DNA of 64,000 nucleotides, from contig CANMSI010000004.1 in assembly GCA_947500575.1 (NCBI GenBank), forward strand, positions 344,778 to 408,777, read 5' to 3'. Below, one piece after another: positions 5,936-35,878 of this stretch; the stretch's first letter is position 1; each line of letters starts with the position of its first letter. The notes beneath the pieces were generated by a model that saw nothing but the letters and a program-made list of their open reading frames with translations, did no database searches and was not told the DNA's origin. The stretch comes from an uncultured Flavobacteriaceae bacterium (GTDB lineage: Bacteria > Bacteroidota > Bacteroidia > Flavobacteriales > Flavobacteriaceae). Position numbers and translations under genes: made by a program.

Positions 5936-6257
5936 GGCTGTTTGTTTACTTAAACTTTTAATCACTTTTTTGGTTGTTAAACACAAAACGCTATTATGCC
6001 CAATTATAACGGGTAATAGTGTTTGTATTTAGACTAACACAAACCGATTAACTTGATTCCTAAATGACTGTGGAAGGGAAAAGAAGGAGTACACTGAAAC
6101 GTGTTTCCATCATGGATATGACGTTCTTTCTTTGGTTTAAACATCCTAAAGTCGGTTAAGTTATTCATGTTTGGGTTTGTATTAAATCAATTTTCGCCGA
6201 TTATTGACGAGATAATTCAATTACACTTTACAAAACTAATCTAATAGCTAGCAGTGT

Positions 6258-6443: not shown

Positions 6444-9400
6444 TTAATTTTTGTTCACTCTATAGGTAATTTTACGATTCGTAATCACGGTATTTACTTT
6501 TACATTTAGGATGGCAGTATTGGAGATTTCGGTATCACACAAATAGGCTGTATTGGATACGATTACTCTATACTGACTTCCATCATCTGCGGTTTGTGCA
6601 TTCGTAATAACTAAGCTTGCCGTGTTCGTACCACTATGAATACCGGTATCAGTAAGGTTTACCCAAATACTACCGTTGAATCGTTGCCATTGATAACTAT
6701 CCGTATTCGTTGCTACCACAGTAAAACTTCCATTACATCCAGGACATATCGTAATGTCTATCGGTTGGGTTGTAATTGCTGGTGCTGTACCCGCTTCTCT
6801 AAAATCAAAAACGCTATTGGAATTTCCATCTGCTGGGGGCGTATATCCATCTGTATTACCTGTTACTACCCCAGTTGTAGTGCTGGTTCCGGTACCTGCT
6901 AATTCCCCTGAAATACTTCCACTCTCTGTATATCCTGCTTCAATAACATCTTCACAACCATCCGCATCACTATCCAATTCTACATAATCCCTATTTCCAT
7001 CCGTATCGGAATCTCTAACGGTATAATTAATAGTAGTACTGTCTTCCTGTCCCGATGCCTGAACGGCGTCTGGAACCCCGTCTAAGCCTACTGCTCCAGT
7101 AAGTCTTCCGGCCGTATGAGCAAGATCGTGTCCGGCTTCTACTACATCATAAATACCATCATTATCACTATCTAAATCTTTATCGTCTGTAACGCCATCT
7201 AGGTCTGTATCCACACCAGCTGTCCAAATAATCGCTTGCACCAGCAGATCTTCCCCTGCAGCATTAAATCCGCCCGTATTGTTTGTATGGGGTACAATGG
7301 TCCTTCTTCCTGGCGCAATGCCTGCGTCCATGGCATCTCCCCTTTCCCATACGGCAATTGCTACCTGTCCATTGGGATGTTCTGCTAATACCGTTCCTGA
7401 AGCCAAATTATTGGCATGGAACGCTGCATCTCCAATATCATAATTTCCTAGGGACAGACCGTTGGTAATAGGATGTGTATTATTCAAAATATTGACAAAA
7501 GCGGTATTACTATTCCCTCCTGTATTAGCACCTAATATATCATCATACAAGGCATTTTCACTGGTAATTACACCACTTGCTGTAGTTGTTAAATTGGCCA
7601 CATTGGCCAAAGCATCACCACTAAAAACATCTTCAAAAATAAAAACAACATCATAGGCATTGGCATCTCCGCCTACATTGTCATCCACCACTGTTACGGT
7701 ATAGCCTAATGCGATTAATTTATCAATCACATTTTGCTCATAGGTCTCAGCTGCATTCTGAGTAACCCATAAAACAGCACGAGGGCTTTCTATAGAATCT
7801 AGAATACCGTCATTATCATCATCTTCATCACAAACATCATTAATACCATCTCCATCTGTATCCGTTCCACTAGGATCTGCACAAGGCTCGTAAATAGTCA
7901 CTGTAGCCGTATCACTTTTACCCAAAGCGGGGCATATAGCAACGGTAGAATCTGTGATGGTATAGTCGAAAGTAGTTCCTGGAAACAGCGTTCCTGCGGA
8001 ATAGGTGTAGGTTACCAAGCCTAAATCGGCATCGTCAATGACCACAGTTCCTATGGCAGGTTGTACCACACTATCTATAAAAAAGTCTTCCCCGTCGGGT
8101 TCCGTATCATTATCGAACAAACTGATTTGTACGGAAACGGTTGTACCAATAGGAACGGTTACAAAGTCGTCTACTGCATCTGGGGCATTGATATTTTCTA
8201 CTATCTCTGCGTCTGTGGTAGATAGATCGTAGTGATTGGTTCCTGGAATGGTACTTGGTGTTGCTACAATAGTAGCAATAAGCCTCGAAAAACCCCCAGG
8301 CGCAGATGCATCATAAAAATTAGGATAACGTACTTCTATTATATACGTCTCATTTTCCCCAAGAGGAAGCCCAAAATGCACTTCTTCTGGACTTTGGGTT
8401 CCATGCCCAAAAACCCCATTTACTTGTCGGAGTCCACTGACTATATTTCCTTCACAATCCTTGATTATGACATTGGTTCCTATGGCAACCCGTTCGGGTA
8501 TTCCACCGGTAGAACCATCGGCACCTCTATCTTCAGTTACATCTATTAAAAGATGGTTATTTCTATTTGCTGCGGGTAGGTTATTGATAAAAAGTTGATT
8601 GGAATTATTGTTAATGTTCATATAAATATCCAAATCTCCATCATCGTCAATGTCGATCATAGTGGTACCTTCTCCATTTCGATTGTTAAAGGTTTCGGCG
8701 TCCAAAGTAAAACTCATGGCCGCTCCACTTCCAATAACCCCTGGTGCTGGGGTAGGACTATTTAGTTGGTTGATAAATAGATAACTTCTATTATCACCTA
8801 CAAAAAGAATATCAATATCCCCATCATTGTCTATATCACCCCCTGCAAGCGCATCAATATCATTAGAAGAACTTCCACTATCTGTATTAGAAGGCTGTGG
8901 TAAACCGGGAAAGGTAGCTGCTCCTAAGGGAGTCCAGATCCCAGGGCCATCATTACGAAAGATTTGGTTTAAACCATTTTCTGTCCAGACTGCATCTAAA
9001 TCCCCATCATTATCCAAATCCCATAGACCATTTCCACCCTTATTTCCGTTATCTGCTTGGGCTAAATCTGACCCATTTGTGAAAGTACCTCCTTGGTTTA
9101 GGAAGAAATCATTTTCATTTCGTTTACGCATAAAGATATCTACCCAGCCATCGTCATTCACATCCGCAGCGGAACCGTAATCTCCGTCTGTTGCAAATTG
9201 ATTCAGACCAAATTCTACTACTCCAGAACCATTACCAGGGGTAATATGCGTAAATAAAGCGTTTGGGGCGGGGTTAACAACGGTATGAGTTATATGATTT
9301 ATATAGTTATTACGCAATAATTCTATCCCGTAATTATGACTATCGAAAAAGATATCTAAATCACCATCTCCTTCAAAATCAAAAAAACCAGCACCTTCTA

Positions 9401-9923
9401 CATTCAAAGGATTAATGGTAATGGTTTCATTATTATTCTCACCCACCGTTAGCGGGGTGGTACCACCAATACCATCACCAAAAGTACCATCTGCATTTTG
9501 TATAAATATTTGCATAGCAACTACATTGGAATTGGTTCCGGAAGAAGTCATCATAAAATCTGGCCTCCCATCTCCATTCACATCTCCCCAAGCTGCTTGG
9601 CGTTCTGCACGGTCTCCAGAGATCATTCCAGGTGCTAAAGTAGTTTGCACATTGGTAAAAGTTCCATTGCCATTATTACGCATTAAATAATTACGTTGGG
9701 AGGTACTATTTCTATTGATAAGGATATCGATATCACCATCGCCATCAAAATCGGACCATGCGTGCCCCCCATCCTTGCCGCCACCTAAGTTCAGATTATA
9801 GGAAGCCGCACTTTCTGTAAAAGTGGTTTGGGCATATAGTCCAGTAGTACATACTAGAAGAAAATACAAGAGTGTAGAACCGATCTTGTTCTTGGGGAAC
9901 TTCAATGGTATAGTTACTTGCAT
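6444..9923 (-). CDS. Secreted FG-GAP/VCBS repeat protein (ASPIC/UnbV, CRTAC1-like) with cadherin-like, thrombospondin-type-3-like Ca-binding and C-terminal Ig-like modules; ends in VITNRKITYRVNKN
   Basis: 1159-aa ORF with an ATG start. It has a signal-peptide-like N-terminus (LLYFLLVCTTGLYAQ). It carries repeated DxDGDGDxDI motifs (DFDGDGDIDILI, GDVNGDGRPDFMM, WDLDNDGDLDAVW, IDIDDDGDLDIYM). A UnbV-like segment reads [57 protein letters not shown] repeats are also present. Confidence 0.85.
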   Translation of the reverse strand: MQVTIPLKFPKNKIGSTLLYFLLVCTTGLYAQTTFTESAASYNLNLGGGKDGGHAWSDFDGDGDIDILINRNSTSQRNYLMRNNGNGTFTNVQTTLAPGMISGDRAERQAAWGDVNGDGRPDFMMTSSGTNSNVVAMQIFIQNADGTFGDGIGGTTPLTVGENNNETITINPLNVEGAGFFDFEGDGDLDIFFDSHNYGIELLRNNYINHITHTVVNPAPNALFTHITPGNGSGVVEFGLNQFATDGDYGSAADVNDDGWVDIFMRKRNENDFFLNQGGTFTNGSDLAQADNGNKGGNGLWDLDNDGDLDAVWTENGLNQIFRNDGPGIWTPLGAATFPGLPQPSNTDSGSSSNDIDALAGGDIDNDGDIDILFVGDNRSYLFINQLNSPTPAPGVIGSGAAMSFTLDAETFNNRNGEGTTMIDIDDDGDLDIYMNINNNSNQLFINNLPAANRNNHLLIDVTEDRGADGSTGGIPERVAIGTNVIIKDCEGNIVSGLRQVNGVFGHGTQSPEEVHFGLPLGENETYIIEVRYPNFYDASAPGGFSRLIATIVATPSTIPGTNHYDLSTTDAEIVENINAPDAVDDFVTVPIGTTVSVQISLFDNDTEPDGEDFFIDSVVQPAIGTVVIDDADLGLVTYTYSAGTLFPGTTFDYTITDSTVAICPALGKSDTATVTIYEPCADPSGTDTDGDGINDVCDEDDDNDGILDSIESPRAVLWVTQNAAETYEQNVIDKLIALGYTVTVVDDNVGGDANAYDVVFIFEDVFSGDALANVANLTTTASGVITSENALYDDILGANTGGNSNTAFVNILNNTHPITNGLSLGNYDIGDAAFHANNLASGTVLAEHPNGQVAIAVWERGDAMDAGIAPGRRTIVPHTNNTGGFNAAGEDLLVQAIIWTAGVDTDLDGVTDDKDLDSDNDGIYDVVEAGHDLAHTAGRLTGAVGLDGVPDAVQASGQEDSTTINYTVRDSDTDGNRDYVELDSDADGCEDVIEAGYTESGSISGELAGTGTSTTTGVVTGNTDGYTPPADGNSNSVFDFREAGTAPAITTQPIDITICPGCNGSFTVVATNTDSYQWQRFNGSIWVNLTDTGIHSGTNTASLVITNAQTADDGSQYRVIVSNTAYLCDTEISNTAILNVKVNTVITNRKITYRVNKN

Positions 9924-10008
9924 AATGATTGGCTATGTCGAAAAAACACTTAAAGTGTATTTTCAAGCTTATTTGGTACTGCAAAATACCTTGATACCTA
10001 TCTTCAAT

Positions 10009-10023
10009 AAAATAAATGTTGTC
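10009..10023. promoter_or_regulatory. Conserved upstream box AAAATAAATGTTGTC (copy upstream of 6444..9923)
   Basis: The 14-nt string AAAATAAATGTTGT is identical to the 6258 copy. It lies about 90 bp upstream of the ATG at 9923. Confidence 0.4.
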
Positions 10024-10156
10024 AAATAATAAAATAGCAATGTATAGTGCGGTAAAGTTGAAGTAATTGGTCTACTCTAATTTACAGTTCATCGATGGAC
10101 TATCGAGAAATAAAGCACTCATTGAGCAATCTTATAAGAAAAAAATTTCGATATTC

Positions 10157-13100
10157 TTAATTTGGATTTACGCGATACGTAATTCTGCGGTTGGTAATTA
10201 CGGTTCGCACTCGAACAATACTTAAAGGAGAAAACTCAGAAGTAGAATTGGTAATAGTGGCCGTGGATGTAATAAATTCTCCCAAAGCTACTGCCACTGG
10301 TAAAGAAATCGAAAATTGGAACATATTGGTATTGTCTGTATTACCATCTGCGTCCGTATACGAAGATACGCCTGCATTGGTATCGGATGCACTTCCCTCC
10401 ACAACAGTTCCTAAATATACTTGTCCTTCGCCATAATCTGTAGATTGTCCAAATTGGTTGTCGCCTGCGGTAGCAGTTCCTTCATTAACATCTGTTAAAA
10501 ACACTTCAATAGTTGCTCCGGGTCTTGACCAACCGCTAATTACTAGATTTGCCCCTAATTTATAGGCTGATGTAATAATAGGAAAATTCAAGGATCCATT
10601 AGGTCCATTATCGGCATCACCACTATCATTTAGTGTTACCCCATCACCTATTTCGCCAGATTGATCAATATCTATACCTAAACCACCGTTAGCGAATATG
10701 GAATTTTGAGAGATGAGATTCCCAGTGAAATTTCCATTTCCTAAAACTATGCCCGCTCCCCCATTATTGGATATAATGTTTTGGGCAATTGTAGAATTGT
10801 TTCCATCTAATAAAATTCCTGAGTTTTCAACATTTCCATTGCAAAGCCCTCCATTTTGACCAGAGTTGACAATTGTATTTTCTAAAATACTGGCATTCCC
10901 TGAAAAGGCATCTGCGTCTATCCCCAAGGAAGCTGCATTCTCAATTAGGTTTTGTTGAATTACAACACCCAATCCATTTTGTAATAAAATATTATCATTG
11001 CAGGCACCATTCCCATTATTTGTTATCTGATTATTCTGAATAATGGAAGCTGTTCCTCCATTCACAACTATTCCTGCATCTGTATTGGTAGCGATATAAT
11101 TACCATTAATATTTACGGTGCCATCCGTAATTTCAACACCAAAATCTACATTCCCACCATTGGTTCCATTGGCATTTACGCCTAAGAAACTATTGGCAAT
11201 TGTAGCAGATCCACCGTCAATTCTGACAGCAGCATTATTTCCTCCAAACACAGAAACATTCCTAATCACCGTATTGGTTCCTGAATTTTTAAGAACATCT
11301 CCCGTTCCTCTATGAATTTGAATTTCAGGGCGATTATAATTGGGTAATACATTGGCAGAAGTTCCTACCGTAGTTCCGCCTGCTCCTATAGTGCCCCCGT
11401 TGGTATCTCCAGAGTAGGCCGTTTGTGTTCTTCCATCGATGACCGTATTAGTGCCTGTAATAGAAGTTAATGAATCCCCATCAGGAATATCGATATCTAG
11501 GTATCCCCCAATATAATTACTATCTGCTGTTCTACCTAGTGGGTCTCCGCTTACAGGAATCATAAAAATAGAGGTGTCTTCTGTGGCTGCTGGGTCAAAA
11601 ATTCCATTGGCTTCAATATCTAGTGTTGCTTGATCTAAATTATTACTATTTACAATAAACTGTTCTAAAGACCCCTGACCATCTTCATTGGTATTCACAA
11701 TGGTATTGAAATTAAATCCAAAATCGAGCCCTACCACTCCCTCTGAGGTAATGGTAACATTAGACACACTTTGCGCATTATTTAAGGTACCGGCATTTGA
11801 GTCTTGTCCGGCAGGGTTTGCACCACCCACTTCTCCAATAATATTAGCAAAGCCGCCTGCAGTAGCATAATTTCTTCTATAGGTTTGAACGGGTATACAA
11901 GTATTGCAGGTAGTTCCACCACCTCTTGTAGAGCGAATGGTGTTATTTACTACACGGACACTAAAGCTTCCATTTGCCATTCCGCCCATGGTATAATCTC
12001 CAGAGGTATCTGTAGTAACAGATTCTATAAACGTATTTGTATTATCATATAATTCGACTGAAACACCTTCAATACCCACGCCATTTGAGGTTATTAGATC
12101 CCTACCTACTCCACCACCATAATTTACGTCTTCAAAAATATTTCCAACAATTAGATTACTGGGAACTTTAACCAAAACCATATTCGCTATTACATAATCC
12201 TGTCCTGCATTTACTCCTACCGTAATTTCTGAGTCGGCTGCAGCTATATAGGGTGAAATATCATATGTATCTAGATCTACACCATAGGAATTACTAATAT
12301 TAACCACAGGTGCAACCGTGTTATCATAAATGGTAGAATTATAAGCATTGTTTCCGGTTTGCCCACCATCTCCCGTTAAAGTGAAAGAGTTACCGGCTTG
12401 ATTGGTTACAATGAGGGATTCTCCATTCGGATTTGTTGTTCCAGCACTATTACCATCTAAAGTAGCATCTCCTTCCCAGGATAAAACTGTTGTCTTTGCT
12501 CCAACGGAACCAATGGCAAAAAAACCATCCAGCGTATAGGAATTGGAGGTATTGCTTTCACCTTTAAATCCATGATACATGTTTACGGATACCGCAGGCA
12601 GATTGGGGTCTTCATAAAATACGATTAAAGACCAACCTCCTAGAACCGTATTAGTTGAACAATAGGTAAAAACGTTATCGGTATTATCTATATCCAAATC
12701 TGCAAAATCATAAGTATTATTAGAGGGGTTCGTTATACCTTCAATAATCGTGGTTACATCCGAAAGCATGCCAAAAAAAACGTTTCCTTGTACAGAGGAA
12801 GAATACACCAGCTCTGCGCTAATTGATTGTCCTTCAAAAGTAACTTCAGTATCAGGAATCTGATTGGAATGCGCCCAAAGTAAAAATGCCTTCTTTACTG
12901 TGGCAGTAGCAGGAATAGTACTTGTAAGACCTGTTGCTGTTGAACTTGTAACAATTGAACAAGGGTTGACTGTATTGCTTTGATCCCTTAATGAACCACC
13001 AGCAACGGCATAATCAAAATAACCATTAAATTCATCAAATAGCGTAAGTGGTACTTCACTAAGAATCACCTCATCATCTGTAATAGTTACTGTTGCAGTA

Positions 13101-13960
13101 TCTGTAATATCTACAGATGGGTCAGATACCGCAGTAAATGCAATGGTGAATGTCTCATCTAATTCGTAGAAGCTGTCATCCAAAATAGTGATTACAATAT
13201 TATCGGTATCACCAGTTGTTCCATTAAAATTTAACACGCCTCCTGAGATTCCTGTATAATCTACATTTTCATCTGCCGATCCTGCACTTGTAGCATATGT
13301 GGCAGTAAAAGATCCTGTCGCAGAACCCCCATCATGGGTGACAACTAAAGTAACCGTCCCATCGTCTTCAGCAACACTAATATCTTCTACTATCAATACA
13401 GGAGGGAAAATAGCGGAAAACTGAACATTATCTATGGTAATTACTTCTCCATTATTCCAATTACCACTACCAGTGCCAAAGGCAATTGCGGAATTTGCGG
13501 AAATCTCATTGGTCGTCAATGTATGTGTAATACTACCCGTGTTGGTGGTATTTATATTGTCTATTACTTCAAAAAAACCAGTACTCGTGTCAAAAAGATA
13601 TACTGCTAAAGTTTCATTACCTCTTGAAGTAGCATCGTAATCCAACGTCAAGGTAACCGAAGTAGCTCCTGATAGGTCTAAATTTCGGATTATAAACCGA
13701 CCGTCAATATCACTAAAAACAAGTTCCCCACCACTTATAAAAATTCTACCACCGTTTGGACTTCCATCGTCATTACTTTCCTGCCAGTTTGTACCAAAAT
13801 TGCTATTTCCATCATTATTCGCATAAGAAACGGTTCCAAATTGGTCTAAATAGATATTTTGCCCAACAACAAAAGTTGTAAACAAAAAAAATATCAGTAT
13901 TGTTAGTCTTTGGTTTGGCATAAGTTGGAATCCAAAGTTCTCTAGATACATCAGTATCAT
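10157..13960 (-). CDS. Secreted adhesin-like protein: N-terminal beta-sandwich, Calx-beta, shared ~300-aa domain, SdrD-B/CarboxypepD_reg-like module, right-handed beta-helix repeats; ends in VITNRRITYRVNPN
   Basis: 1267-aa ORF. The ATG at 13960 or the internal ATG at 13921 (MPNQRLTILIFFLFTTFVVGQ, a better signal peptide) could be the start. Calx-beta signature: VAEDDGTVTLVVT...DYTGISGGVLNFNGTTGDTDNIVITILDDSFYELDETFTI. Beta-helix-like repeats: NTVIRNVSVFGGNNAAVRIDGGSATIANSFLG. Confidence 0.85.
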   Translation of the reverse strand: MILMYLENFGFQLMPNQRLTILIFFLFTTFVVGQNIYLDQFGTVSYANNDGNSNFGTNWQESNDDGSPNGGRIFISGGELVFSDIDGRFIIRNLDLSGATSVTLTLDYDATSRGNETLAVYLFDTSTGFFEVIDNINTTNTGSITHTLTTNEISANSAIAFGTGSGNWNNGEVITIDNVQFSAIFPPVLIVEDISVAEDDGTVTLVVTHDGGSATGSFTATYATSAGSADENVDYTGISGGVLNFNGTTGDTDNIVITILDDSFYELDETFTIAFTAVSDPSVDITDTATVTITDDEVILSEVPLTLFDEFNGYFDYAVAGGSLRDQSNTVNPCSIVTSSTATGLTSTIPATATVKKAFLLWAHSNQIPDTEVTFEGQSISAELVYSSSVQGNVFFGMLSDVTTIIEGITNPSNNTYDFADLDIDNTDNVFTYCSTNTVLGGWSLIVFYEDPNLPAVSVNMYHGFKGESNTSNSYTLDGFFAIGSVGAKTTVLSWEGDATLDGNSAGTTNPNGESLIVTNQAGNSFTLTGDGGQTGNNAYNSTIYDNTVAPVVNISNSYGVDLDTYDISPYIAAADSEITVGVNAGQDYVIANMVLVKVPSNLIVGNIFEDVNYGGGVGRDLITSNGVGIEGVSVELYDNTNTFIESVTTDTSGDYTMGGMANGSFSVRVVNNTIRSTRGGGTTCNTCIPVQTYRRNYATAGGFANIIGEVGGANPAGQDSNAGTLNNAQSVSNVTITSEGVVGLDFGFNFNTIVNTNEDGQGSLEQFIVNSNNLDQATLDIEANGIFDPAATEDTSIFMIPVSGDPLGRTADSNYIGGYLDIDIPDGDSLTSITGTNTVIDGRTQTAYSGDTNGGTIGAGGTTVGTSANVLPNYNRPEIQIHRGTGDVLKNSGTNTVIRNVSVFGGNNAAVRIDGGSATIANSFLGVNANGTNGGNVDFGVEITDGTVNINGNYIATNTDAGIVVNGGTASIIQNNQITNNGNGACNDNILLQNGLGVVIQQNLIENAASLGIDADAFSGNASILENTIVNSGQNGGLCNGNVENSGILLDGNNSTIAQNIISNNGGAGIVLGNGNFTGNLISQNSIFANGGLGIDIDQSGEIGDGVTLNDSGDADNGPNGSLNFPIITSAYKLGANLVISGWSRPGATIEVFLTDVNEGTATAGDNQFGQSTDYGEGQVYLGTVVEGSASDTNAGVSSYTDADGNTDNTNMFQFSISLPVAVALGEFITSTATITNSTSEFSPLSIVRVRTVITNRRITYRVNPN

Positions 13961-14011
13961 AGAATTAACTTTTTAAATGTATCTCAAAACTAAGGTTTAA
14001 ATAATCCTCAA

Positions 14012-14030
14012 ACTAAATAATGTTGTGAAG
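14012..14030. promoter_or_regulatory. Conserved upstream box ACTAAATAATGTTGTGAAG (copy upstream of 10157..13960)
   Basis: The 19 nt are identical to 17515-17533. A second conserved stretch follows (ATTTG..AAGTAAAC..ATAAAA). Confidence 0.45.
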
Positions 14031-14094
14031 TGGTCAATTTGCGAAGTAAACAGATAAAATAATAAGGTATAAGCAATTACTACACGCTATAACG

Positions 14095-17000
14095 CTAACT
14101 CTTATTGACCCTATACGTAATTCTCCTGTTGGTAATCACGGTTCTTACTCCCACGTTTAGTGTTGCTATATCTGAAATAAGACTAGTTTCACAAACAAAT
14201 GCGATATTAGATATTAAGAGTCTATATTGGTTTCCGTTATCGGCCAATCCGGCGCTTAAAATTGCCAAATTTGAAGTTCCAGATCCTACATAGCGCACGC
14301 CATCATCCACTATATTATTAAATGTTGTTCCGCCATCCGTGCTCTCTTGCCACTGAAAAGTAGTAGCATTATTCCAGGATGAGGTAAAAGTAGCTTGTGT
14401 ACAATCTGTAACCGTTTGATCTGTAGGTTGAACACCCACAGAAGGGCTTACCCCTAGTTCTTGAAAGTCATACGTACCATTAGTATCAAGATCATTTGGT
14501 GTACTGTAACCACCTTGGCCGGTTACCAAACCGTCTGCATCCACTGTTACGGGAGAGTTTCCTAAAACTCCATCATCATCAGGATCTGTAAAACCGGCTT
14601 CAACAGCATCGTTACAACCATCTGCGTCACTATCTAAATCTAGATAATCTAACAGTCCGTCACTATCGGTATCGGGAACCGTACAATAAGAAAAATTATA
14701 CACCTCAATGGTATTAGGGTCAACACTTCCATCTGCTTTTCCACTGGTTACTACAATTCTTGTTACCGCTTGTTCTATAGAAAAACTTATAATTTCATTC
14801 ACATAATTACTCGTTGTAAATGACTGTAATTCACCAATATAAGAGTTAAAATTGTCTCCAGCAACAACACTTCCGCCAATTGTAAAATTTGATGATCCAA
14901 TGAGAATTGGGTTGTTGTTAATATCAAATGCCTCAAAAATAAGTCGATCATCGAACTCCAATCCTCCAAAGGTCATATTTTGAATGGTTGCGGGTTGATT
15001 AAAAACGAATTCATAGGTAGCAGAACCTGCACCATCTGCCACATTCGTTGGTCTTAGATATAAGGTATTACTCCCTACGGCACCTCCATCATCTCTTATT
15101 TGAACTCCGCTGGCCCAAGTAGCGGTACCGTTCAATGTATAATTTAAATCAATATAATTAGTACCATTAGCAGCTAGATTTAATAAACTGCCTGTATTTC
15201 CAGTAGATAGATCTGTATTGATGGTATATCCAGAACTATTGACTTCTGTATTGGTAACGCATATGGATTCATCTGTATCCAAAATACCGTCATTATCGTC
15301 GTCCAAATCCGTTACATCTGGTTCACCATCAAGATCTGTATCCAATAGCGATAAAACCGTTAATATTCCTGTAGATTCTCCCGCTAGTGGAATGTTTTGA
15401 TCATTGGAAACATCTGCAGATGTAATCGTGTTCGTATAAGTTCCATCCGCCACAACCACAATATCAAAAGATACTTCACAATTAGATCCCGCAGGAATAG
15501 TTGCACCAGTGACCATAAAACTATCCGAACCTGGTACTGCCGTAATGGTACCACCACATGATGTTGTAACATTTGGGGCTGTCGCTATGCTCATACCAGT
15601 AGGAAGCACATCTGTCAACATAAAATTAGTAAGTGACACCCCATTAGCCGGATTCTCAACAGATATGGTAACTCTTGAACGGTCGTTTTCAAAAATAGTA
15701 GAAGGACCAAATACTTTGCTAGAAACTGCTGGAAAGGCAATTTCATTCGAAATCACCAATGCACCACCCCAAATACCTTCGCTGCTACTTCCCAAGGTTA
15801 CCGTTGCAGAAGTAGCACTATTGGCTACCAGCCCAGAAGCATCAAAAACGTCTGCATCAATTCCCCAACTGTAGCTGAAATTTGGATTTCTACCTCCAAC
15901 ATCAACACCAAACTCAGAAATAGTACCATTCAATGTATTATTGTTAGGATTTAACGCATTGGATAGTGCTGTTCCGTTGATACTCACAAAATCACCGCTA
16001 CTATTTGCCTCACCATCAAATCCAAAATAACCTGAATGCGTTTCAAAAGCTCCGGTTGAAGGTGTTAGCAGACCAGTTACGGTAAAGGAATCGTTTGCTC
16101 CGAAACCGAAAAAATCAAAGCCATCCCAAATTGAAATATTTCTAGATATCTCTGTTGGATCTTCATATATTATTACCATATTCCACCCTCCATAAGGGCC
16201 TGTAAAACCACTTCCAGTAGCTAGTGCTATATCTGCCACAAAATAATCGCCACTTCCTCCAGATTGCACCATACTGGTAACATCTGCATAGGCCAAAAAA
16301 GAATTCCATCCTGAAAAGGAGGTTGATTCTACATTTCGAACTTCCGCTGCCACCGTTGTATAACTGGCTGCACCTGGTTCCCTAAACTTTACTTGATCAA
16401 TATCTAAGGAGCCGGCAGGGTTTGTAATACCACCGTTAGTGCTAGCATACATTCCACCCCAATACAGAGCAGCATACAAGACCGTAGCACCTCCAGGAAT
16501 ATTTATGCTACTACTACTGGAATTTATGGTAGTAGCGTCTGCATCTACATCGGCATATCCCATTACTACAGAGGGATTATTTGTAACAGGAGTCGCTGGG
16601 CAACCAGACGTACATAAAAGGTTGGTATTCCCTCTCATGATAAAATTTCCCATCAAGTTCAACGCAATTCTTTCTTCATAAGGACGTACATCATCAGGAT
16701 CGCTCTCATTCTCTAAGATCGTACCAATAGCGGTATCGGAGAAATCTACTGTTGGGTCTGAGGCCGCTGTAAATTGAATTGAGAATGTTTCATTTCCTTC
16801 AAAAATCAAGTCGTCTGTAATGCTCACAACGATTTGATCTGTATCGCCAAGGGTTCCATCAAAATTGAGAGTTCCACTAGTAATTGCCGTGTAATCCGTT
16901 CCCGCGTTGGCAGAAATATCTACCGTATTATAGGTAACAGAAAACGGACCAGAAGCCGCTGCATTTTGCGTTTCCACTGTAAACGTTGCTGTACCCCCAT

Positions 17001-17463
17001 CTTCATTTACCGATACATCTAAAACCTCTAGGGTGGGCGCAAAGGGTTGAATATTAAAAGGAACATCTATAAAAGCACCTCCCACTGTTAAATCAGATGT
17101 GAGTATCAATACCCCATCCTGGTATACACGTACAAAAGATCCTGCCCCATTCCACGCATCTCCAAAATTATCTTCTAATCGAATAAAATAGTTATTTCCA
17201 TAAGGGACGCTCGCATAAGTTTCAGGCGTTCCTACAGTATTATAGGCATTATTAGTGCTAGAATCAAAACAAGTAGCTGGGTTACAAATAGAAGCTCCGA
17301 TCTGTGTACTAGTAGGGTTAAAAAAGCGTACCCTGTTATCTGATGACCAATTGGGCCAGTTTACCTCAATAGTAATCGTAGCCTGACTATAAGACATAGC
17401 CGTTAAAAAGAAAAATAATAAAGGTAAAAGACCTTTAACATATTTTAGATTACCAGAGAACAT
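14095..17463 (-). CDS. Secreted adhesin-like protein: EDxFGDxW N-terminal domain, Calx-beta, shared ~300-aa domain, DUF11-like repeat, thrombospondin-type-3-like repeats, Ig-like module; ends in VITNRRITYRVNKS
   Basis: The ORF-track start at 17490 is a TTG. The ATG at 17463 gives MFSGNLKYVKGLLPLLFFFLTAMSYSQ, a signal peptide. Calx-beta signature: VNEDGGTATFTVE...[62 protein letters not shown] is also present. Confidence 0.85.
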   Translation of the reverse strand: MFSGNLKYVKGLLPLLFFFLTAMSYSQATITIEVNWPNWSSDNRVRFFNPTSTQIGASICNPATCFDSSTNNAYNTVGTPETYASVPYGNNYFIRLEDNFGDAWNGAGSFVRVYQDGVLILTSDLTVGGAFIDVPFNIQPFAPTLEVLDVSVNEDGGTATFTVETQNAAASGPFSVTYNTVDISANAGTDYTAITSGTLNFDGTLGDTDQIVVSITDDLIFEGNETFSIQFTAASDPTVDFSDTAIGTILENESDPDDVRPYEERIALNLMGNFIMRGNTNLLCTSGCPATPVTNNPSVVMGYADVDADATTINSSSSSINIPGGATVLYAALYWGGMYASTNGGITNPAGSLDIDQVKFREPGAASYTTVAAEVRNVESTSFSGWNSFLAYADVTSMVQSGGSGDYFVADIALATGSGFTGPYGGWNMVIIYEDPTEISRNISIWDGFDFFGFGANDSFTVTGLLTPSTGAFETHSGYFGFDGEANSSGDFVSINGTALSNALNPNNNTLNGTISEFGVDVGGRNPNFSYSWGIDADVFDASGLVANSATSATVTLGSSSEGIWGGALVISNEIAFPAVSSKVFGPSTIFENDRSRVTISVENPANGVSLTNFMLTDVLPTGMSIATAPNVTTSCGGTITAVPGSDSFMVTGATIPAGSNCEVSFDIVVVADGTYTNTITSADVSNDQNIPLAGESTGILTVLSLLDTDLDGEPDVTDLDDDNDGILDTDESICVTNTEVNSSGYTINTDLSTGNTGSLLNLAANGTNYIDLNYTLNGTATWASGVQIRDDGGAVGSNTLYLRPTNVADGAGSATYEFVFNQPATIQNMTFGGLEFDDRLIFEAFDINNNPILIGSSNFTIGGSVVAGDNFNSYIGELQSFTTSNYVNEIISFSIEQAVTRIVVTSGKADGSVDPNTIEVYNFSYCTVPDTDSDGLLDYLDLDSDADGCNDAVEAGFTDPDDDGVLGNSPVTVDADGLVTGQGGYSTPNDLDTNGTYDFQELGVSPSVGVQPTDQTVTDCTQATFTSSWNNATTFQWQESTDGGTTFNNIVDDGVRYVGSGTSNLAILSAGLADNGNQYRLLISNIAFVCETSLISDIATLNVGVRTVITNRRITYRVNKS

Positions 17464-17514
17464 GCTTGCAATTTGGGGGTTGTACCTCAAAACTAACGCA
17501 TATTAACCGCGATC

Positions 17515-17533
17515 ACTAAATAATGTTGTGAAG
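17515..17533. promoter_or_regulatory. Conserved upstream box ACTAAATAATGTTGTGAAG (copy upstream of 14095..17463)
   Basis: The 19 nt are identical to 14012-14030. It lies about 55 bp upstream of the ATG at 17463. Confidence 0.45.
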
Positions 17534-17598
17534 AGCTCTATTTGATAAGTAAACTCATAAAAACGCAGTGTTAAGAAGTTAATTTTATGACCAATTTG

Positions 17599-19239
17599 TC
17601 AATTTTTATTGACTCGATAGGTAATACGTCGGTTGGTAATCACACTCTGAACTACTAGTGTTAGTACTACAGTATTTGAAGTTTCTGAATTACAGGTATT
17701 TACACTACTTGAAACCAGAACTCTATATTGGTTACCATTATCCATCGCAGTAGCGTCTGTGACGGTTAAAGTAGCCGTATTTGCGCCAGAATGTACCCTG
17801 GTATTGGTTACATTTACCCAAGTACTACCATTAAATTGCTGCCATTGAAATGTATTTGCGTTAGATGTAGCTACACTGAACGTAGTAGAACAGCCTAAAC
17901 AAATGGTTCTATCTAATGGCTGCGTACCAATGCTTACTGCAGGCAAGATGGTTATTTGTGTACTTCCTGAAACGTTTACTACTGGGTCACCAATAGATCC
18001 ACCATACTCTATAATGTATCCTTGTGGCGCGTAGGCACCTCCTCCTCCAACGTTCGGTAAGTCGTTCCAAGATCCTGGAGTAGCGGTCACTGAGGGATCC
18101 GTAATATGTGCAAAGTTCTCTTGGCCAGGTGTGCCTGGACCACCAGGATAATCATTAGGCTCATTGTTGTTCCAAAAGGCATATGTAAGTTCCGTTCCTC
18201 CTACTCCACCACTCCAAAAAGAGGTGCCTGCTTCGGGACCAGTAACCCATTGCCAATCGCCTTCTGTTGTGTCATCGGTTGCTCCAATCCAACCAACACC
18301 CGTAGCTTGAGAACCACTAAAATCGGCTTCTGCTTGTGATGTTAAGGTAACTAGATATCCTTGCAATCCATAATACGTTCGAGCGGCAGCGGCATCTCGC
18401 GCATCTGTCCATGTAATTCCAGGATCCGCAATAAATTCATAGTAATGAGCTGTTGATGGAAGAAAATTAGTATCGCCAACACTAATAGAAAAACCACGCG
18501 TGCCCGTGGGATTAATTGCACTACTACTATATTCTACCGAAGCAATTGCTGCCTCCAGTTCCGTTAAAGTTGCTGGTCCGGTAAGGGTTAGTTTCCCCTC
18601 CGTAATACTCCAAGTAGCTGTAATTGATGGATGTACACCGATAAGCGTTAACAGATCCTCTCCATTCATATATCCTGACGAAATTTGAATGGAAACTTCA
18701 TCTGCAGTAGTATCATCTTCATCCGTAATAGAAACCGATTCTACTACAGGAATGGAAGTTCCAGGACAATAACCCTGATCTCCGGTTACCGTAATTACGG
18801 GAGCTGCATCCGAAAAAATTGCGTCAAAAGTAAGCGTGATATCATCACCAAAGTCGCCGGGAGACGACTCCAAAACTAAATCTCCATCAACGTAAACCCT
18901 TACAAAAGATGTTCCGCCACCATAATCTCGCCATCCATCCCCAAAAGCATCTTCAATAAATAACTGGTAGCCCAGAGCGTAAGGTACCGTAAAAGTATCT
19001 GGAGCCCCGCTATTGTCATAAGTATCATTACTAAAATCACCGCTAAAACAGTTTAAAGGATAACATACCGTACCAATATCGGCTCCTGAAGAAGTCCTAA
19101 ATATAATTCTATTTTCCTCTGCATAATTATTCCAATCCACTTCTATAGTTACTAAAGCTTGCCCATTTACCTCTGCTGAGAAACAGAATAGCAAAAACAG
19201 TATAGGTAATATTATTTTAGTAGTTCTTTGAAGTAACAT
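17599..19239 (-). CDS. Secreted C-type-lectin-domain protein with EDxFGDxW N-terminal domain and Ig-like module; ends in VITNRRITYRVNKN
   Basis: 546-aa ORF with an ATG start and a signal peptide (ILPILFLLFCFSAEVNGQ). C-type lectin signature: HYYEFIADPGITWTDARDAA...GYLVTLTSQAEADF...GWIGATDDTTEGDWQWVTG...FWNNNEPND...WNDL. Confidence 0.85.
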   Translation of the reverse strand: MLLQRTTKIILPILFLLFCFSAEVNGQALVTIEVDWNNYAEENRIIFRTSSGADIGTVCYPLNCFSGDFSNDTYDNSGAPDTFTVPYALGYQLFIEDAFGDGWRDYGGGTSFVRVYVDGDLVLESSPGDFGDDITLTFDAIFSDAAPVITVTGDQGYCPGTSIPVVESVSITDEDDTTADEVSIQISSGYMNGEDLLTLIGVHPSITATWSITEGKLTLTGPATLTELEAAIASVEYSSSAINPTGTRGFSISVGDTNFLPSTAHYYEFIADPGITWTDARDAAAARTYYGLQGYLVTLTSQAEADFSGSQATGVGWIGATDDTTEGDWQWVTGPEAGTSFWSGGVGGTELTYAFWNNNEPNDYPGGPGTPGQENFAHITDPSVTATPGSWNDLPNVGGGGAYAPQGYIIEYGGSIGDPVVNVSGSTQITILPAVSIGTQPLDRTICLGCSTTFSVATSNANTFQWQQFNGSTWVNVTNTRVHSGANTATLTVTDATAMDNGNQYRVLVSSSVNTCNSETSNTVVLTLVVQSVITNRRITYRVNKN

Positions 19240-19411: not shown

Positions 19412-19450
19412 AAAAAAGGCGATGACTTTATATAGTCATCGCCCTTTTTT
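19412..19450 (-). terminator. Rho-independent terminator after the T9SS operon (OmpA-family gene)
   Basis: A perfect 10-bp stem, ggcgatgact (19418-19427) with agtcatcgcc (19434-19443), encloses a 6-nt loop. A and T runs flank it on both sides. Confidence 0.8.
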
Positions 19451-19468
19451 ACTATTTATAATTGAATA

Positions 19469-21406
19469 TTATTCAAAAATAATGAATTCTGATCTTCTAT
19501 TCAGTTGGTGCTTTTCTTCAGAGCATTTGGTATTATTATCACATTCGTTGATTAGTTTGCTTTCCCCAAATCCTTCTTTTTCCAGGCGATCAGCTGCAAT
19601 TCCTTTGGAGATCATGTATGCCACTGTAGATTCTGCTCTCCTTTGAGAAAGTGCTAAATTATAGGCATCGCGTGCTCTACTGTCTGTATGTGAATTAACT
19701 TTTACTTTAAGACTAGGATATTTCTCCATAGCAGCTATTACTTTTTGAATTTCAATTTCTGCATCTGGACGTATGTTTGCCTTGTCTAAATCGAAGTAAA
19801 TGGTGCTCAACTGTAAGAGTTTTGCCAGATCGTCTCCAAAACCAGCAGTAACGGTTTCTCTTTCTAGGTAGAAATCCATTATTCTTGGTTTTCCGTCAGA
19901 TTTTACCAAGTATTCTTCAGAAGGTGTATATCCTTGTATTTGTGCTCTAACAAAATTTCCTTGATCACAATTAATCTCTAATTGATAGGTACCATCTGCA
20001 TCGGTGATTGTTGATAGTATTTCTTCGTTATTCTCATCAATTACTTTGATGGTGGCTCCTACCAATACCTCATTAGAAATTTTATCTCTTACAGTTCCTG
20101 TAATCTGCTGAAGACACTCAAACTGCAGCGGTTTCAATTCTACGAAGCTGTAGATATCATCTCTTCCCATGCCTCCTTTACGGTTGGAAGCAAAATACCC
20201 TTCTCTATTTTCTTCATTAAAAATAAATGTGAAGTCGTCTTGTTTGCTATTGACAGGCTCCCCAACATTTAAAACAGAAGCATTATAAGTTTGATCTTTA
20301 ATTTTTGTTGCAAATACATCCAAACCTCCTAGACCAGGATGTCCTTCTGATGAGAAATAAAGAATCTCATTACTTGTCACATAAGGAAAGGTTTCCCTTG
20401 CTTCAGTATTGATTGTTTTTCCCAAATTCTCTGGGGTTCCGTAGGTTCCATCTTCATTGATACTGACTTTATAGATATCGGATAAACCTTGGGTTCCAGG
20501 CATATCGGAAGCAAAATAAAGTGTTTTTTCATCCGGACTTAAAGCAGGATGCGCCACTGAATAATCGTCGCTATTAAAAGGAAGCCCTCTAGGTAGAGTC
20601 CATTCACCATCTACCAAAGATGTTTTAAAAATCTTTAGACGAATAACACCATCTTTATCTTTCTTTACTTTCCCTTCTTGGAAATTATTTCTTGTAAAGT
20701 AAAGCGTGTTTCCATCCTTTGAAAAAGCCGATGTAGATTCGTGCAAACGGGTATTTACCACTTTGCTTAATTTATCTACATCATTGATAGAAGAAGAATC
20801 TGCATTGATCTTATATAGGTCTAAAAAGTCTTTGGAATTCCAAGTATGGCGATAGCGCGCTAAATTTCCAGTATCTCTGTCCGATGAAAATATCAAACCT
20901 TCTTTGTAAAAAGATGGTGCAAAATCTGCATATTTAGAATTGTATTCAAAAGGTCCCATGGTATATCTACCAGAATTCTTCGAAATAGCCGCTAAATAGT
21001 CTTTCTCTTCTTCATATACGGTAGCTCTTACATCATTAGAGGTTAAGGAAGTAAACTTGGACATAATAGCGTTGGACTTCTCATATTCTCCAAGCGTTCT
21101 TAAAGTCTGCGCATATCTAAAATAATATTCGGCACCAACATCTGCAGTATATTCATCTACCAATCTTGCGTAGGTTTCTGAGGCCTCTTGATAGTCGGCA
21201 TTAAAATAGTAGGAATTCCCTAAACGTTTTAATAGGTCTGCTGAAACATAGCCTTTATCTAGGACACGTTTGTATATATCAATTGCTGGACTAAAAGAAT
21301 AATCCTCATATTGCGCATTGGCTTTATTAACAAGTCTTTCTTGTGCAGATATAGTTCCAGTACATGTGGCGATTAGGACAACTAGTAAAAGGATTCTTTT
21401 TAACAT
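19469..21406 (-). CDS. OmpA-family outer-membrane/peptidoglycan-associated protein (TPR, TolB-like beta-propeller, CarboxypepD_reg-like, OmpA C-terminal domain)
   Basis: 645-aa ORF with an ATG start and a signal peptide. OmpA-like C-terminus: IYFDLDKANIRPDA...VNSHTDSRARDAYNLALSQRRAESTVAYMISKGI. It follows PorP/SprF by 11 bp, a typical T9SS type-B operon partner. Confidence 0.9.
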   Translation of the reverse strand: MLKRILLLVVLIATCTGTISAQERLVNKANAQYEDYSFSPAIDIYKRVLDKGYVSADLLKRLGNSYYFNADYQEASETYARLVDEYTADVGAEYYFRYAQTLRTLGEYEKSNAIMSKFTSLTSNDVRATVYEEEKDYLAAISKNSGRYTMGPFEYNSKYADFAPSFYKEGLIFSSDRDTGNLARYRHTWNSKDFLDLYKINADSSSINDVDKLSKVVNTRLHESTSAFSKDGNTLYFTRNNFQEGKVKKDKDGVIRLKIFKTSLVDGEWTLPRGLPFNSDDYSVAHPALSPDEKTLYFASDMPGTQGLSDIYKVSINEDGTYGTPENLGKTINTEARETFPYVTSNEILYFSSEGHPGLGGLDVFATKIKDQTYNASVLNVGEPVNSKQDDFTFIFNEENREGYFASNRKGGMGRDDIYSFVELKPLQFECLQQITGTVRDKISNEVLVGATIKVIDENNEEILSTITDADGTYQLEINCDQGNFVRAQIQGYTPSEEYLVKSDGKPRIMDFYLERETVTAGFGDDLAKLLQLSTIYFDLDKANIRPDAEIEIQKVIAAMEKYPSLKVKVNSHTDSRARDAYNLALSQRRAESTVAYMISKGIAADRLEKEGFGESKLINECDNNTKCSEEKHQLNRRSEFIIFE

Positions 21407-21417
21407 CTATTTTTAAT

Positions 21418-22368
21418 TTAGAAGAAACGAGGTGATACTAATTTTTCAAAAGACTTAACCAATTCAAATCTTAAGAATACTTCAAAGGAACCATCATTAA
21501 ACTGGGTTCCTCCTAATGCGGTAGTCTCCCTGTCATAGGCAAGACCTAACATCATCTGATCAGATATTTGAAATCCTAACAAACCACTTACGGCAGCATC
21601 CCAACGATAAGCTGCACCAAACATAAATTTGTCATTAAACAAAAAATTAGCAGAAACATCTACTTGTAATGGTGCTCCACCTACTGCTTTCAGAAGTGCT
21701 GCAGGTTTGAATTTAAAATTATTATTTAAATCGAATACGTAACCAGTTATCAAATAAAGGTTAATGCGTTCTCTTGCCAAGAAATTAACTCCTCCAGTGC
21801 TATTTTGGTTATCAAAATATTCTGTTTCCAAAATATTTGGTGCAGATAAACCTGCGTAAAACTTCTTACTGTGGTAGTATACCCCTAACCCAAAATTTGG
21901 TGAAAATTGATTATCAATATTATTTCCGTCTATGGCTTCACTATCGAAGTTTCGAAGTTGTGAAAAATCTAGATTTAAGATGCTACCTCCAACTTTTAAT
22001 CCAAAAGATAGTTTGGCATTTTCGGAAACATCTAAGCTATAAGACACTACAGCATCAATATCTGTCTCTTGTACGGTACCTTCACCAATATTGTCATTAA
22101 TTACGGAAAGACCATAGCCCACTTTGCTTTCTCGTATGGGCGAATGTAAGTTTAAAGTGAAGGACTCTGGAGCGCCAGCTAAGCCTACCCATTGAGATCT
22201 GTATAATGCGGCTGCACTAAACTGACCACGAGAACCTGCGTAGGCAGGGTTAACACTAAGGGTGTTGAACATGTATTGGGTGTACTGCGCATCTTGTTGC
22301 GCACTGACAGTTTGTAGCACTGCCATGCATAGAAATATGCATGGCAGTAATCCGCTTTTTTTTATCAT
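21418..22368 (-). CDS. PorP/SprF-family type IX secretion system membrane protein
   Basis: 316-aa ORF with the N-terminal signature QQDAQYTQYMFNTLSVNPAYAGS. Beta-barrel-like alternating pattern throughout. It lies 17 bp downstream of a type-B-CTD gene. Confidence 0.9.
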   Translation of the reverse strand: MIKKSGLLPCIFLCMAVLQTVSAQQDAQYTQYMFNTLSVNPAYAGSRGQFSAAALYRSQWVGLAGAPESFTLNLHSPIRESKVGYGLSVINDNIGEGTVQETDIDAVVSYSLDVSENAKLSFGLKVGGSILNLDFSQLRNFDSEAIDGNNIDNQFSPNFGLGVYYHSKKFYAGLSAPNILETEYFDNQNSTGGVNFLARERINLYLITGYVFDLNNNFKFKPAALLKAVGGAPLQVDVSANFLFNDKFMFGAAYRWDAAVSGLLGFQISDQMMLGLAYDRETTALGGTQFNDGSFEVFLRFELVKSFEKLVSPRFF

Positions 22369-25151: not shown

Positions 25152-25572
25152 AAGTGTCAGCAATTTGAGTTACTAATCACCATGGCTTTGTAGGAAAATA
25201 ATCTGTAAGAAGTTAGGGCTTCTTGGTAATTTTACCGCAATATATAGCTTAATTCTCGATCCTCAAATTGTTTTAAAAGCATATATTATGAAAATTCTTT
25301 ATAAACACAGGTTTACTCGATAAAGAGTTCAATTATCATCTGTTTTGTTGTAGTAAGATACGTTGATCGATGAAAAAAAGTTTATCTCCTTCGCAAAAAA
25401 ACGATTAAATTTGCTTTTGATCGAGTCTTAAAACCCCATATAAGAAACAGATTATTAGGCTACTATCCCATCCATATTTATAATACAGCATCCCTTTTGA
25501 AAATTTTATAAATCGTATTTCATATCTCTGGTAAGCCATAATATTTAGCTTATTTTTGCTCAAATTTTTTTC

Positions 25573-27162: not shown

Positions 27163-27177
27163 CTGAAACAACCTACC

Positions 27178-31941: not shown

Positions 31942-31999
31942 AATAATATGGTGATAGTAATTTAAATGTTCTAATTACATCGTTTTAACAACGATATGC

Positions 32000-34900: not shown

Positions 34901-35809
34901 ATCACTCTGTGCATTATTTTCTTTGTGTAAAAGGATCGTTTTCACATCGGCTTCTAAAATTTGAGCGATGTGATCTTTCTCTAATACAGTGTCTCTATCT
35001 AGCACAATTTCATTACGTTCAATAGATACTACTTCTCCAGTATCTTCATCAACGAAATCTTCGTGCCATGTATTTAAAACTCTAGCCGCAAGCTTACGAC
35101 CTAAAACTTTCTTTAATCCTGCATTGGAAACTTTGATTTCTTCAGAAAGGTCAAAAATCTCTAAAATATCCTTATCGCGTTCAAAGCCTATTGCTCTGAA
35201 CAAGGTAGTTACAGGTAATTTCTTTTTTCGATCAATATACGCGTACATTACGCCGTTGATATCGGTAGCAAATTCTATCCAAGAACCCTTAAATGGAATA
35301 ACTCTTGCCGAGTATAACTTGGTTCCGTTCGCATGGAAAGACTGTCCAAAGAATACACCAGGTGAACGGTGTAATTGAGATACTACAACACGTTCTGCTC
35401 CATTGATAACAAAAGTACCGCTAGGTGTCATGTAAGGAATGGTCCCTAAATAAACATCTTGTACAATTGTCTCAAAATCCTCGTGCTCTGGATCTGTACA
35501 ATACAATTTCAGTCTAGCCTTTAGCGGAACGCTATAGGTAAGACCTCTTTCTATACATTCTTGTATGGAGTATCTAGGCGGATCTATGAAATAGTCTAAA
35601 AACTCTAATACAAACTGGTTTCGTGTGTCGGTAATCGGGAAGTTTTCCATGAAGGTATTATACAATCCTTCATTGCCTCTTTCGTCAGATTTTGTTTCTA
35701 ATTGGAAGAAATCCTGAAACGATTTAATCTGAATGTCCAAGAAATCCGGGTATTCCGGAATGTTCTTAGCGGATGCAAAACTTATTCTTTCAGTCTGATT
35801 TGTGAACAT
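32000..35809 (-). CDS. rpoB: DNA-directed RNA polymerase subunit beta
   Basis: The ORF-track start at 35812 is a TTG; the ATG at 35809 gives [11 protein letters not shown].... Conserved segments include GRHGNKGIV and [20 protein letters not shown]. Confidence 0.98.
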
Positions 35810-35878
35810 CAATGGACAAAATTTTGATCGTGAATATTATATCGGGGTGGTATATCACTTTATATACCTCGTATAAAA

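Follow-up and report, generated by a model that had tools for sequence, protein, structure and literature searches.

In this work we analysed a stretch of 64,000 nucleotides from an uncultured Flavobacteriaceae bacterium (assembly GCA_947500575.1, contig CANMSI010000004.1, positions 344,778 to 408,777; hereafter the window). Region 6444-19239 of the window consists of four successive open reading frames (ORFs) of the minus strand, encoding proteins of 1159, 1267, 1131 and 546 amino acids (aa) whose translations all end in the same short basic peptide, [TS]VITNR[RK]ITYRVNxx-stop, here called the tail. An initial annotation of this DNA had pointed out the four adjacent tails, and its coordinates and sequences were reproduced exactly. 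A six-frame scan tolerating up to four substitutions found these four in-frame copies only, each placed two residues before the stop codon; the single further match in the window contains an internal stop codon and is noise. A chance origin can be discarded, as the degenerate back-translated motif matches the window four times against 0.00 expected from 100 dinucleotide-preserving shuffles, and a scan of other genomes found at least 118 stretches with the motif for an estimated one by chance. The four copies differ as DNA: their Arg/Lys codons are CGT/AAA/AGA, CGC/AGA/CGC, AGG/AGA/AGG and CGA/CGT/CGA, and synonymous Val, Thr and Asn codons differ too.

As the initial annotation had stated, all four proteins start with a signal peptide, of the Sec type as judged by inspecting the translations, and their passenger domains, identified with Pfam, are of adhesin type (Table 1). 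Its account of the sequence ahead of the tail was also correct: in three proteins the tail follows an immunoglobulin (Ig)-like module and in the 1267-aa protein an unrelated segment (beta-helix, '...NSTSEFSP'). The Ig-like module gives weak Pfam Ig_3/I-set matches in proteins 1 and 4, is recognised in protein 3 by inspection of the common C..QWQ..QYR sequence, and in protein 1 is predicted as a confident I-set fold (AlphaFold 2, AF2, with Foldseek).

Two minor features concern proteins 3 and 4. The longest ORF of protein 3 starts at a TTG codon, the public gene call is 1122 aa long, and the start is probably 27 nt downstream. Proteins 3 and 4 also have an N-terminal domain in common (17200-17490 and 18950-19239, minus strand; TIEVNWPNW...FVRVYQDG versus TIEVDWNNY...FVRVYVDG), which has no Pfam match.

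Table 1. Positions of the tails, the tail proteins and the surrounding features in the window
Feature	Coordinates	Strand	Content or evidence
Giant repeat/collagen-like protein of 2339 aa, N-terminal ~2000 aa, runs off the window	1..5965	-	GPxGNQ tract
Tail protein 1, 1159 aa	6444..9923	-	Signal peptide, FG-GAP/ASPIC repeats, cadherin-like, TSP3 repeats, I-set Ig module (~6495-6791), tail
Tail 1, NTVITNRKITYRVNKN + stop	6444..6494	-	ORF translation, six-frame scan, DNA pattern
Tail protein 2, 1267 aa	10157..13960	-	Signal peptide, Calx-beta, SdrD_B/CarboxypepD_reg-like, right-handed beta-helix, '...NSTSEFSP' segment, tail; no Ig module
Tail 2, RTVITNRRITYRVNPN + stop	10157..10207	-	ORF translation, six-frame scan, DNA pattern
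Tail protein 3, 1131 aa (longest ORF)	14095..17490	-	Signal peptide, N-terminal domain common with protein 4, Calx-beta, DUF7933, TSP3-like repeats, Ig module, tail
Tail 3, RTVITNRRITYRVNKS + stop	14095..14145	-	ORF translation, six-frame scan, DNA pattern
Tail protein 4, 546 aa	17599..19239	-	Signal peptide, N-terminal domain common with protein 3, C-type-lectin-like domain, Ig module, tail
Tail 4, QSVITNRRITYRVNKN + stop	17599..17649	-	ORF translation, six-frame scan, DNA pattern
Palindromic hairpin	19418..19443		Perfect 10-bp stem (GGCGATGACT...AGTCATCGCC)
PorE-like OmpA-family protein (CHU_0125/PorE-type)	19469..21406	-	Family match: beta-propeller, CarboxypepD_reg, OmpA_C
PorP/SprF-family outer-membrane protein of the type IX secretion system	21418..22368	-	TIGR03519, 277 bits
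925-aa protein with a type-B C-terminal domain of the type IX secretion system, first gene of the conserved locus	22386..25163	-	PF13585 CHU_C, 83 bits; TIGR04131, 33.9 bits
prfC	25573..27162	+
rpoC	27643..31941	-
1270-aa ORF, probably rpoB	32000..35812	-

Spread, conservation and modularity of the tail

A degenerate DNA pattern was scanned against one genome per GTDB species, which gave the stretches mentioned above; locus counts below refer to the 118 loci retrieved, of 8 kb each, with 127 motif instances. The named carriers are all marine Flavobacteriaceae, one record being labelled 'Cytophaga sp.', and they include Maribacter, Aquimarina, Arenibacter, Cellulophaga, Zobellia, Flagellimonas/Muricauda, Croceitalea, Croceivirga, Tenacibaculum, Eudoraea, Robiginitalea, Muriicola and Nonlabens, besides others; the remaining carriers are metagenome-assembled genomes of Flavobacteriales or Bacteroidota. 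The motif stands one to four residues before the stop codon in 122 of the 127 instances, so that it is terminal and not mainly internal. Identity across the instances is 0.91 for amino acids, 0.73 for nucleotides and 0.40 at third codon positions, and all six Arg codons occur at each Arg of the tail. Selection thus acts on the peptide, as the initial annotation had concluded from the four copies of the window, and a DNA repeat or an RNA element, with codon choice free, is rejected. Two regularities were not imposed by the search pattern: the stop comes three or four codons past ITYR[VI] in 123/127 instances, and the residue at position -1 is T or S in 104/127.

An exhaustive protein search with a tail-centred hidden Markov model (HMM) profile (HMMER, 1.84 billion cluster representatives, E<=1e-3) retrieved 217 clusters at 50% identity, and the match reaches the C-terminus of the protein in all 150 listed; it superseded a profile search with a 47-aa query that had returned short fragments only, apparently because the tool is biased. 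Between ITYR and the end of the protein there are four residues in 125 of 140 representatives. The consensus is [TS]-[VIL]-I-T-N-R-[RK]-I-T-[YHF]-R-[VI]-[NK]-x-[ND]-COOH. In the 157 tails retrieved with the HMM, N3 (157/157) and R9 are invariant, T7 is kept in 155 and I1 and I6 in 153 each, figures raised in part by the preference of the pattern and the HMM for near-consensus sequences; the terminal residue is N or D in 130. Basic residues number three to five per tail, and acidic ones are almost absent ahead of the final position. Orthologues do not lose the tail: among the 120 best homologues of protein 2, the strict terminal motif is found in 105, a one-residue variant in 12 and extra residues after the motif in 3. 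These 120 are all close, tail-bearing orthologues, and more distant homologues with other anchors were not reached; that passengers of this kind change anchors is supported indirectly by the Pfam families described below.

The sole match in a viral collection is an Ig-plus-tail ORF (...VITNRKITYRVDM*) at 8715-9095 of the IMG/VR uncultivated viral genome (UViG) 3300032087_003793, at the edge of a 9-kb contig; it is probably bacterial DNA classed as viral, or prophage-flanking DNA.

The tail is modular, as had been proposed from the four proteins. At least eight visibly unrelated sequence contexts directly precede it in the genome loci, and the 64 full-length tail proteins carry more than 20 Pfam families (25 families shown of 31), all of them passengers in front of the same peptide. 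These include Ig_3, Ig_7 ('CHU_C associated'), HYR/HYR_4C, Big_9, Cadherin_4/5, FG-GAP, DUF11 and DUF7933, and also LTD, PA14, beta-helix, CBM4_9, lectins, GEVED and SprB repeats, a repertoire that is the usual one for type IX secretion system (T9SS) cargo. The commonest context is an Ig-like module directly ahead of the tail (96 retrieved tail proteins), and a crude heuristic detects a signal peptide in 58 of 88 full-length representatives. The tail joins the last beta-strand without a linker. In the AF2 model of the Ig module plus tail (46-sequence alignment) the module has a predicted local distance difference test (pLDDT) score of 90-97, and the tail, at about 60, is an unpacked coil; Foldseek relates the module to the I-set domains of titin, Robo and MuSK, with no T9SS C-terminal domain structure in its top 50 matches. 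Modelled behind the beta-helix (37-sequence alignment, mean pLDDT 61.6), the tail stays below 50, with a weak VITN/TYRV hairpin. To be strongly conserved and yet have no fold of its own in these models is typical of a linear motif, and we therefore take the tail as a probable linear motif, ordered only on a partner.

Comparison with known C-terminal signals

Cargo of the T9SS is currently recognised, in annotation and in experiments, by a C-terminal domain (CTD) of type A or type B. On the four full proteins, TIGR04183, TIGR04131, PF18962, PF13585 and the CTERM-type models gave no match at E<=1 (NCBIfam, release of June 2026, and Pfam), and no signal model matched the isolated tails, the Ig-plus-tail module or the beta-helix end plus tail at E<=10. 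None of the 64 full-length carriers matches a T9SS CTD or other sorting model of NCBIfam, CTD families are absent among the Pfam families shown for them, and CHU_C was found on no tail ORF of the retrieved loci; as positive controls, the neighbouring 925-aa protein and a Tenacibaculum 394-aa protein scored 83 and 85 bits on CHU_C. These results agree with the initial annotation, according to which the neighbouring gene (that of the 925-aa protein) carries a T9SS CTD, the four tail proteins have none, and the tail is no named signal and has no hydrophobic helix: no model matches it, and its sequence contains no hydrophobic stretch. The idea of a divergent T9SS CTD formed by the Ig-like module and the tail is rejected, since there is no HMM signal on the proteins, the tails or the combination, and the module is a titin/Robo-like I-set domain and not a CTD fold. 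A kinship of the tail with the last strand of the neighbouring type-B CTDs (...EYIYISR, ...GYIYINR) was considered as well and yielded no convincing alignment. Peptide substrings retrieved nothing relevant from the full-text literature, no curated model mentions the tail, and it is apparently undescribed.

The tail behaves like the C-terminal tags known for sorting and anchoring, yet it lacks the features by which each class tested is defined. With the T9SS CTDs of type A (TIGR04183/PF18962) and type B (TIGR04131/PF13585 CHU_C) it shares a C-terminal position on Sec-exported, multidomain, adhesin-like Bacteroidota proteins, modularity across unrelated passengers, and the passengers themselves, which are those usually found ahead of CTDs (Ig_7 'CHU_C associated', SprB, HYR, GEVED, Big_9). 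Like the genes for type-B cargo, tail genes cluster with PorP/SprF and PorE-like genes; in the locus the PorP/SprF genes directly follow CHU_C genes and not tail genes. CTDs are folded beta-sandwiches of 70-100 aa and are loosely conserved, whereas the tail has about 15 residues, has no HMM or fold similarity to them, is near-invariant and is confined to part of one family. The LPXTG/sortase, PEP-CTERM/exosortase, GlyGly-CTERM/rhombosortase and MYXO-CTERM signals are likewise short lineage-specific C-terminal tags, on varied 'choice-of-anchor' passengers and in paralogous surface families. They are, however, tripartite (motif, hydrophobic helix, basic cluster) and processed by membrane enzymes, whereas the tail has no hydrophobic segment, has three or four polar residues after the motif and matches no NCBIfam model; among the genes of the 118 loci there is no recurrent peptidase-like neighbour.

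Other parallels concern peptides that are bound by a partner. Ligands of PEX5-TPR (peroxisomal targeting signal 1, PTS1) and of PDZ domains also lie at a fixed distance from the C-terminus, are disordered alone and occur identically on unrelated cargo; PTS1 allows folded partners to be carried piggy-back, and a TPR/beta-propeller (PorE-like) protein is encoded directly upstream of many tail genes. These systems differ in being eukaryotic or cytoplasmic, and the tail is longer, with 11 conserved residues, and is internal in five Aquimarina proteins. In dockerin-cohesin pairs and in the donor strands of Bacteroidota type V pili, a conserved C-terminal element plugs many proteins into a common scaffold, and the tail is prone to form beta-strand and is weakly predicted as a hairpin; but dockerins are Ca-binding domains of about 70 aa, and type V pilins have an N-terminal lipoprotein signal, protease maturation and self-polymerisation, features absent from the tail proteins. 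Finally, the C-terminal beta-signal of beta-barrel substrates of BAM ends in an aromatic residue (usually Phe or Trp), unlike most tails, and the carriers are soluble multidomain proteins.

Genes around the tail proteins

Directly upstream of the tail genes in the window, and on their strand, are genes for a CHU_C, a PorP/SprF and a PorE-like protein. Genes past the left edge were read on the public contig CANLEJ010000002.1 (GCA_947489695.1). The giant collagen-like protein (L119 13959-20978) has 2339 aa; its N-terminal head contains Cys, and it has repeats of 85 aa besides a long GPxGNQ tract that is collagen-like. It is followed by a second CHU_C protein (672 aa; Big_9, Cadherin_5, CHU_C) and a second PorP/SprF (L119 20994-23480), so that the array of tail genes is bracketed by two such pairs. 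The initial annotation had wondered whether the C-terminus of the giant, which lies outside the window, also carries the tail; the end recovered on the source contig, ...NSLINVVFVVK, has none.

The order found here, type-B CTD protein, PorP/SprF, PorE-like OmpA, tail genes, giant collagen-like protein, is shared by 68 of the 118 loci. By clustering, no gene is found beside tail genes more often than an orthologue of the giant (54/118 loci), and the giant or a 'mini-giant' lies immediately downstream of 33 tail genes and upstream of 8. Immediately upstream, the commonest gene is the PorE-like one (18 cases), with orthologues 60-73% identical in about 20 species. A second layout, found in Aquimarina and Tenacibaculum, consists of the giant or mini-giant, a tail gene and a gene for a CHU_C protein of about 390 aa, the latter present at 14/14 such loci; the distance from the tail stop to the CHU_C start is -4, -1, 0 or +7 nt in four genomes (L066 2469-4585, L075 2314-4838, L102, L090), a spacing that suggests translational coupling of the two genes. 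According to published work, PorP/SprF proteins are the cognate shuttles of type-B cargo (PMC12618676), and type-B CTD proteins bind PorP-like barrels, which in turn bind peptidoglycan-anchored PorE-like proteins, forming anchoring complexes at the cell surface (PMC9143113).

Several observations on these genes can be recorded separately. The collagen-like tract lifts the local GC content to 0.50-0.54, against 0.35-0.40 elsewhere. The giant ends in a conserved domain of about 100 aa (...RIFYPPSIA...ELYYYVT...NVVFVVK) without a family match, which is also found in the Aquimarina giants and in the mini-giants of Tenacibaculum (345-369 aa); the N-terminal domain of about 300 aa of the ~390-aa CHU_C protein has no family assignment either. 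The hairpin of Table 1 falls between the PorE-like gene and the first tail gene, which are 229 bp apart, and may be a terminator or an attenuator between two transcription units. A scan for sigma-70 promoters and terminators, which does not cover Bacteroidota promoters, gave counts at or below shuffle expectation. Core housekeeping genes adjoin the locus (25573-35812), which is therefore chromosomal and not on an obvious mobile island.

A proposed docking or sorting role and the alternatives

The initial annotation proposed that the tail is a sorting or anchoring tag. Its description (selection on the peptide, modularity, signal peptides, no CTD, no named signal) stands, and the function is one that we infer from comparative genomics: a conserved partner probably reads the tail as a docking or sorting peptide. 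Among the hypotheses it raised, a tag read by the T9SS or by a dedicated partner is favoured because of the synteny with type-B CTD, PorP and PorE genes; another, that the tail is a terminal beta-strand donated to a partner in the outer membrane, may also hold. The most likely place for the partner is then the type-B/PorP/PorE module, with the tail mediating co-export and/or surface retention, a placement for which we judge the chances to be about even. Under this model, Sec would export adhesin-like proteins that have no T9SS CTD and that carry the tail directly after their last beta-strand. The tail, disordered alone, would be bound by a single conserved partner, perhaps as a short beta-hairpin or an added strand, and its spacing from the free carboxylate would matter. 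The partner would belong to, or work with, the surface-anchoring module of T9SS type-B cargo, PorP(SprF) and PorE-like proteins whose genes adjoin the tail genes, and tail binding would either take the CTD-less proteins out along with this module or keep them attached to it on the cell surface, so that one anchor could display interchangeable adhesin heads. A more specific form of the model is a third T9SS-linked route, in which the tail lets CTD-less adhesins bind a type-B CTD carrier or its PorP/PorE complex in the periplasm, hitchhike through the wide SprA translocon and stay displayed on that anchor; we propose it tentatively, as a rather doubtful possibility.

Several observations weigh against docking on the type-B module. 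We looked for a published precedent of co-export through the T9SS and found none. All five motifs of the type-B CTD, of about 100 aa, are required for secretion in Flavobacterium johnsoniae (PMC12618676), which makes it unlikely that a peptide of 15 residues is a T9SS signal on its own. In about 49 of the 118 loci, singleton tail genes, for example for lectin-type proteins of about 470 aa or proteins of about 330 aa, lie away from T9SS genes; they suit a receptor acting in trans, yet weaken the argument from synteny, and tail genes and T9SS cargo genes could cluster merely since both encode adhesins. Part of the apparent conservation comes from the way tails were retrieved, as said above. Tail variants such as NRNITYRI follow the orthologue and not the genome, so there is no visible co-variation with a receptor. 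Lastly, in five Aquimarina proteins a perfect VITNRRITYRV is internal and followed by a domain of about 120 aa ending ...CGC[VI][ST]F[YF]K[LI], which means either that a free C-terminus is not absolutely required or that the extension is removed after export.

This Aquimarina extension, of about 110-120 aa with the wider ending ...C[GNS]C[VIT][ST]F[YF]x[LNF]-COOH (L002 6937-7329, plus strand; L029, L061, L097, L111; P0278-P0283), has no Pfam or NCBIfam match and resembles, only weakly, domains that are internal in other tail proteins. Its place is always the C-terminus, and proteins without the tail have it too. We considered it as a 'Rosetta stone' for the receptor and rejected this use, as it is an independent C-terminal domain that points to no receptor; the extension may itself be a sorting domain of the C-terminus, distinct from the tail and so far unrecognised.

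An alternative to docking through a carrier is that the tail is itself a minimal third T9SS export signal, read directly by the translocon, by PorV or by a PorP/SprF-like shuttle. The tail proteins do combine Sec signal peptides with passengers of T9SS cargo, yet 0/64 carriers match a CTD model, the source locus encodes two PorP/SprF proteins, and some PorP/SprF shuttles serve several orphan substrates (PMC12618676). Nevertheless, the known T9SS signals are folded domains of 70-100 aa, of which type B needs all its motifs (PMC12618676). No HMM of either CTD class recognises the tail, its likeness to the last strand of the neighbouring type-B CTDs is not convincing, and AF2 gives it no fold; we consider an autonomous signal unlikely.

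It is quite unlikely, in our opinion, that the tail instead docks adhesin heads on the neighbouring collagen-like fibre, at its N-terminal head or its C-terminal domain, as a decorated surface fibril, with the T9SS genes serving the fibre or other cargo only. The frequency of giants and mini-giants beside tail genes (54/118 loci) and their adjacency in both layouts, the Maribacter type and the Aquimarina/Tenacibaculum type, are in keeping with such a fibril, as is the collagen tract, which implies a trimeric stalk. But the giant is also without a recognised export signal, and fibre docking therefore explains the outer-membrane crossing of neither protein; in addition, the singleton tail genes are far from any giant gene.

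Still less probable is the absence of any sorting role, the tail serving instead to cap the last domain structurally or to stabilise it, or as a tag for periplasmic quality control or protease recognition. The junction with the last beta-strand, without a linker and with T or S at position -1 in most instances, would suit a cap, and many periplasmic proteases and PDZ proteins read C-termini. However, a peptide that stands behind more than 20 domains of unrelated structure cannot complete one particular fold, AF2 packs it on neither of the modelled contexts, and the conservation of a degron on giant adhesins over some 20 genera is not expected. As for a generic cationic anchor that needs no dedicated protein receptor and adheres to anionic lipopolysaccharide, to the capsule or to sulfated polysaccharide of algae, the basic composition of the tail and the marine, algae-associated carriers would fit, but such anchors normally tolerate sequence shuffling and length variation, whereas the length, register and distance to the stop are fixed here and the uncharged N3, T7, I1 and I6 are as invariant as the arginines, which makes a purely electrostatic anchor, another hypothesis of the initial annotation, highly improbable.

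Docking on a conserved partner would have consequences beyond this locus. In at least 217 clusters (50% identity) of large Sec-exported adhesin-like proteins, the invariant peptide is the only recognisable export or anchoring signal, and the carriers are ecologically important marine Flavobacteriaceae, among them Tenacibaculum, a genus with fish pathogens. Should the tail be a sorting or docking tag, it would represent a new, peptide-sized class of surface-display signal in Bacteroidota, account for the way in which these CTD-less giants reach or stay on the surface and provide a compact tag for surface display; if hitchhiking is correct, the tail would be the first T9SS signal that is a peptide and works through an adaptor, and T9SS co-transport would have its first case. 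A simple profile model would then improve annotation. Public records name tail proteins generically or wrongly. Several orthologues of protein 2 are annotated 'sodium:calcium exchanger' or 'Na-Ca exchanger/integrin-beta4' (records P0021, P0034, P0043, P0051, P0067, P0101), apparently because of their Calx-beta domain; they are secreted beta-helix adhesin-like proteins.

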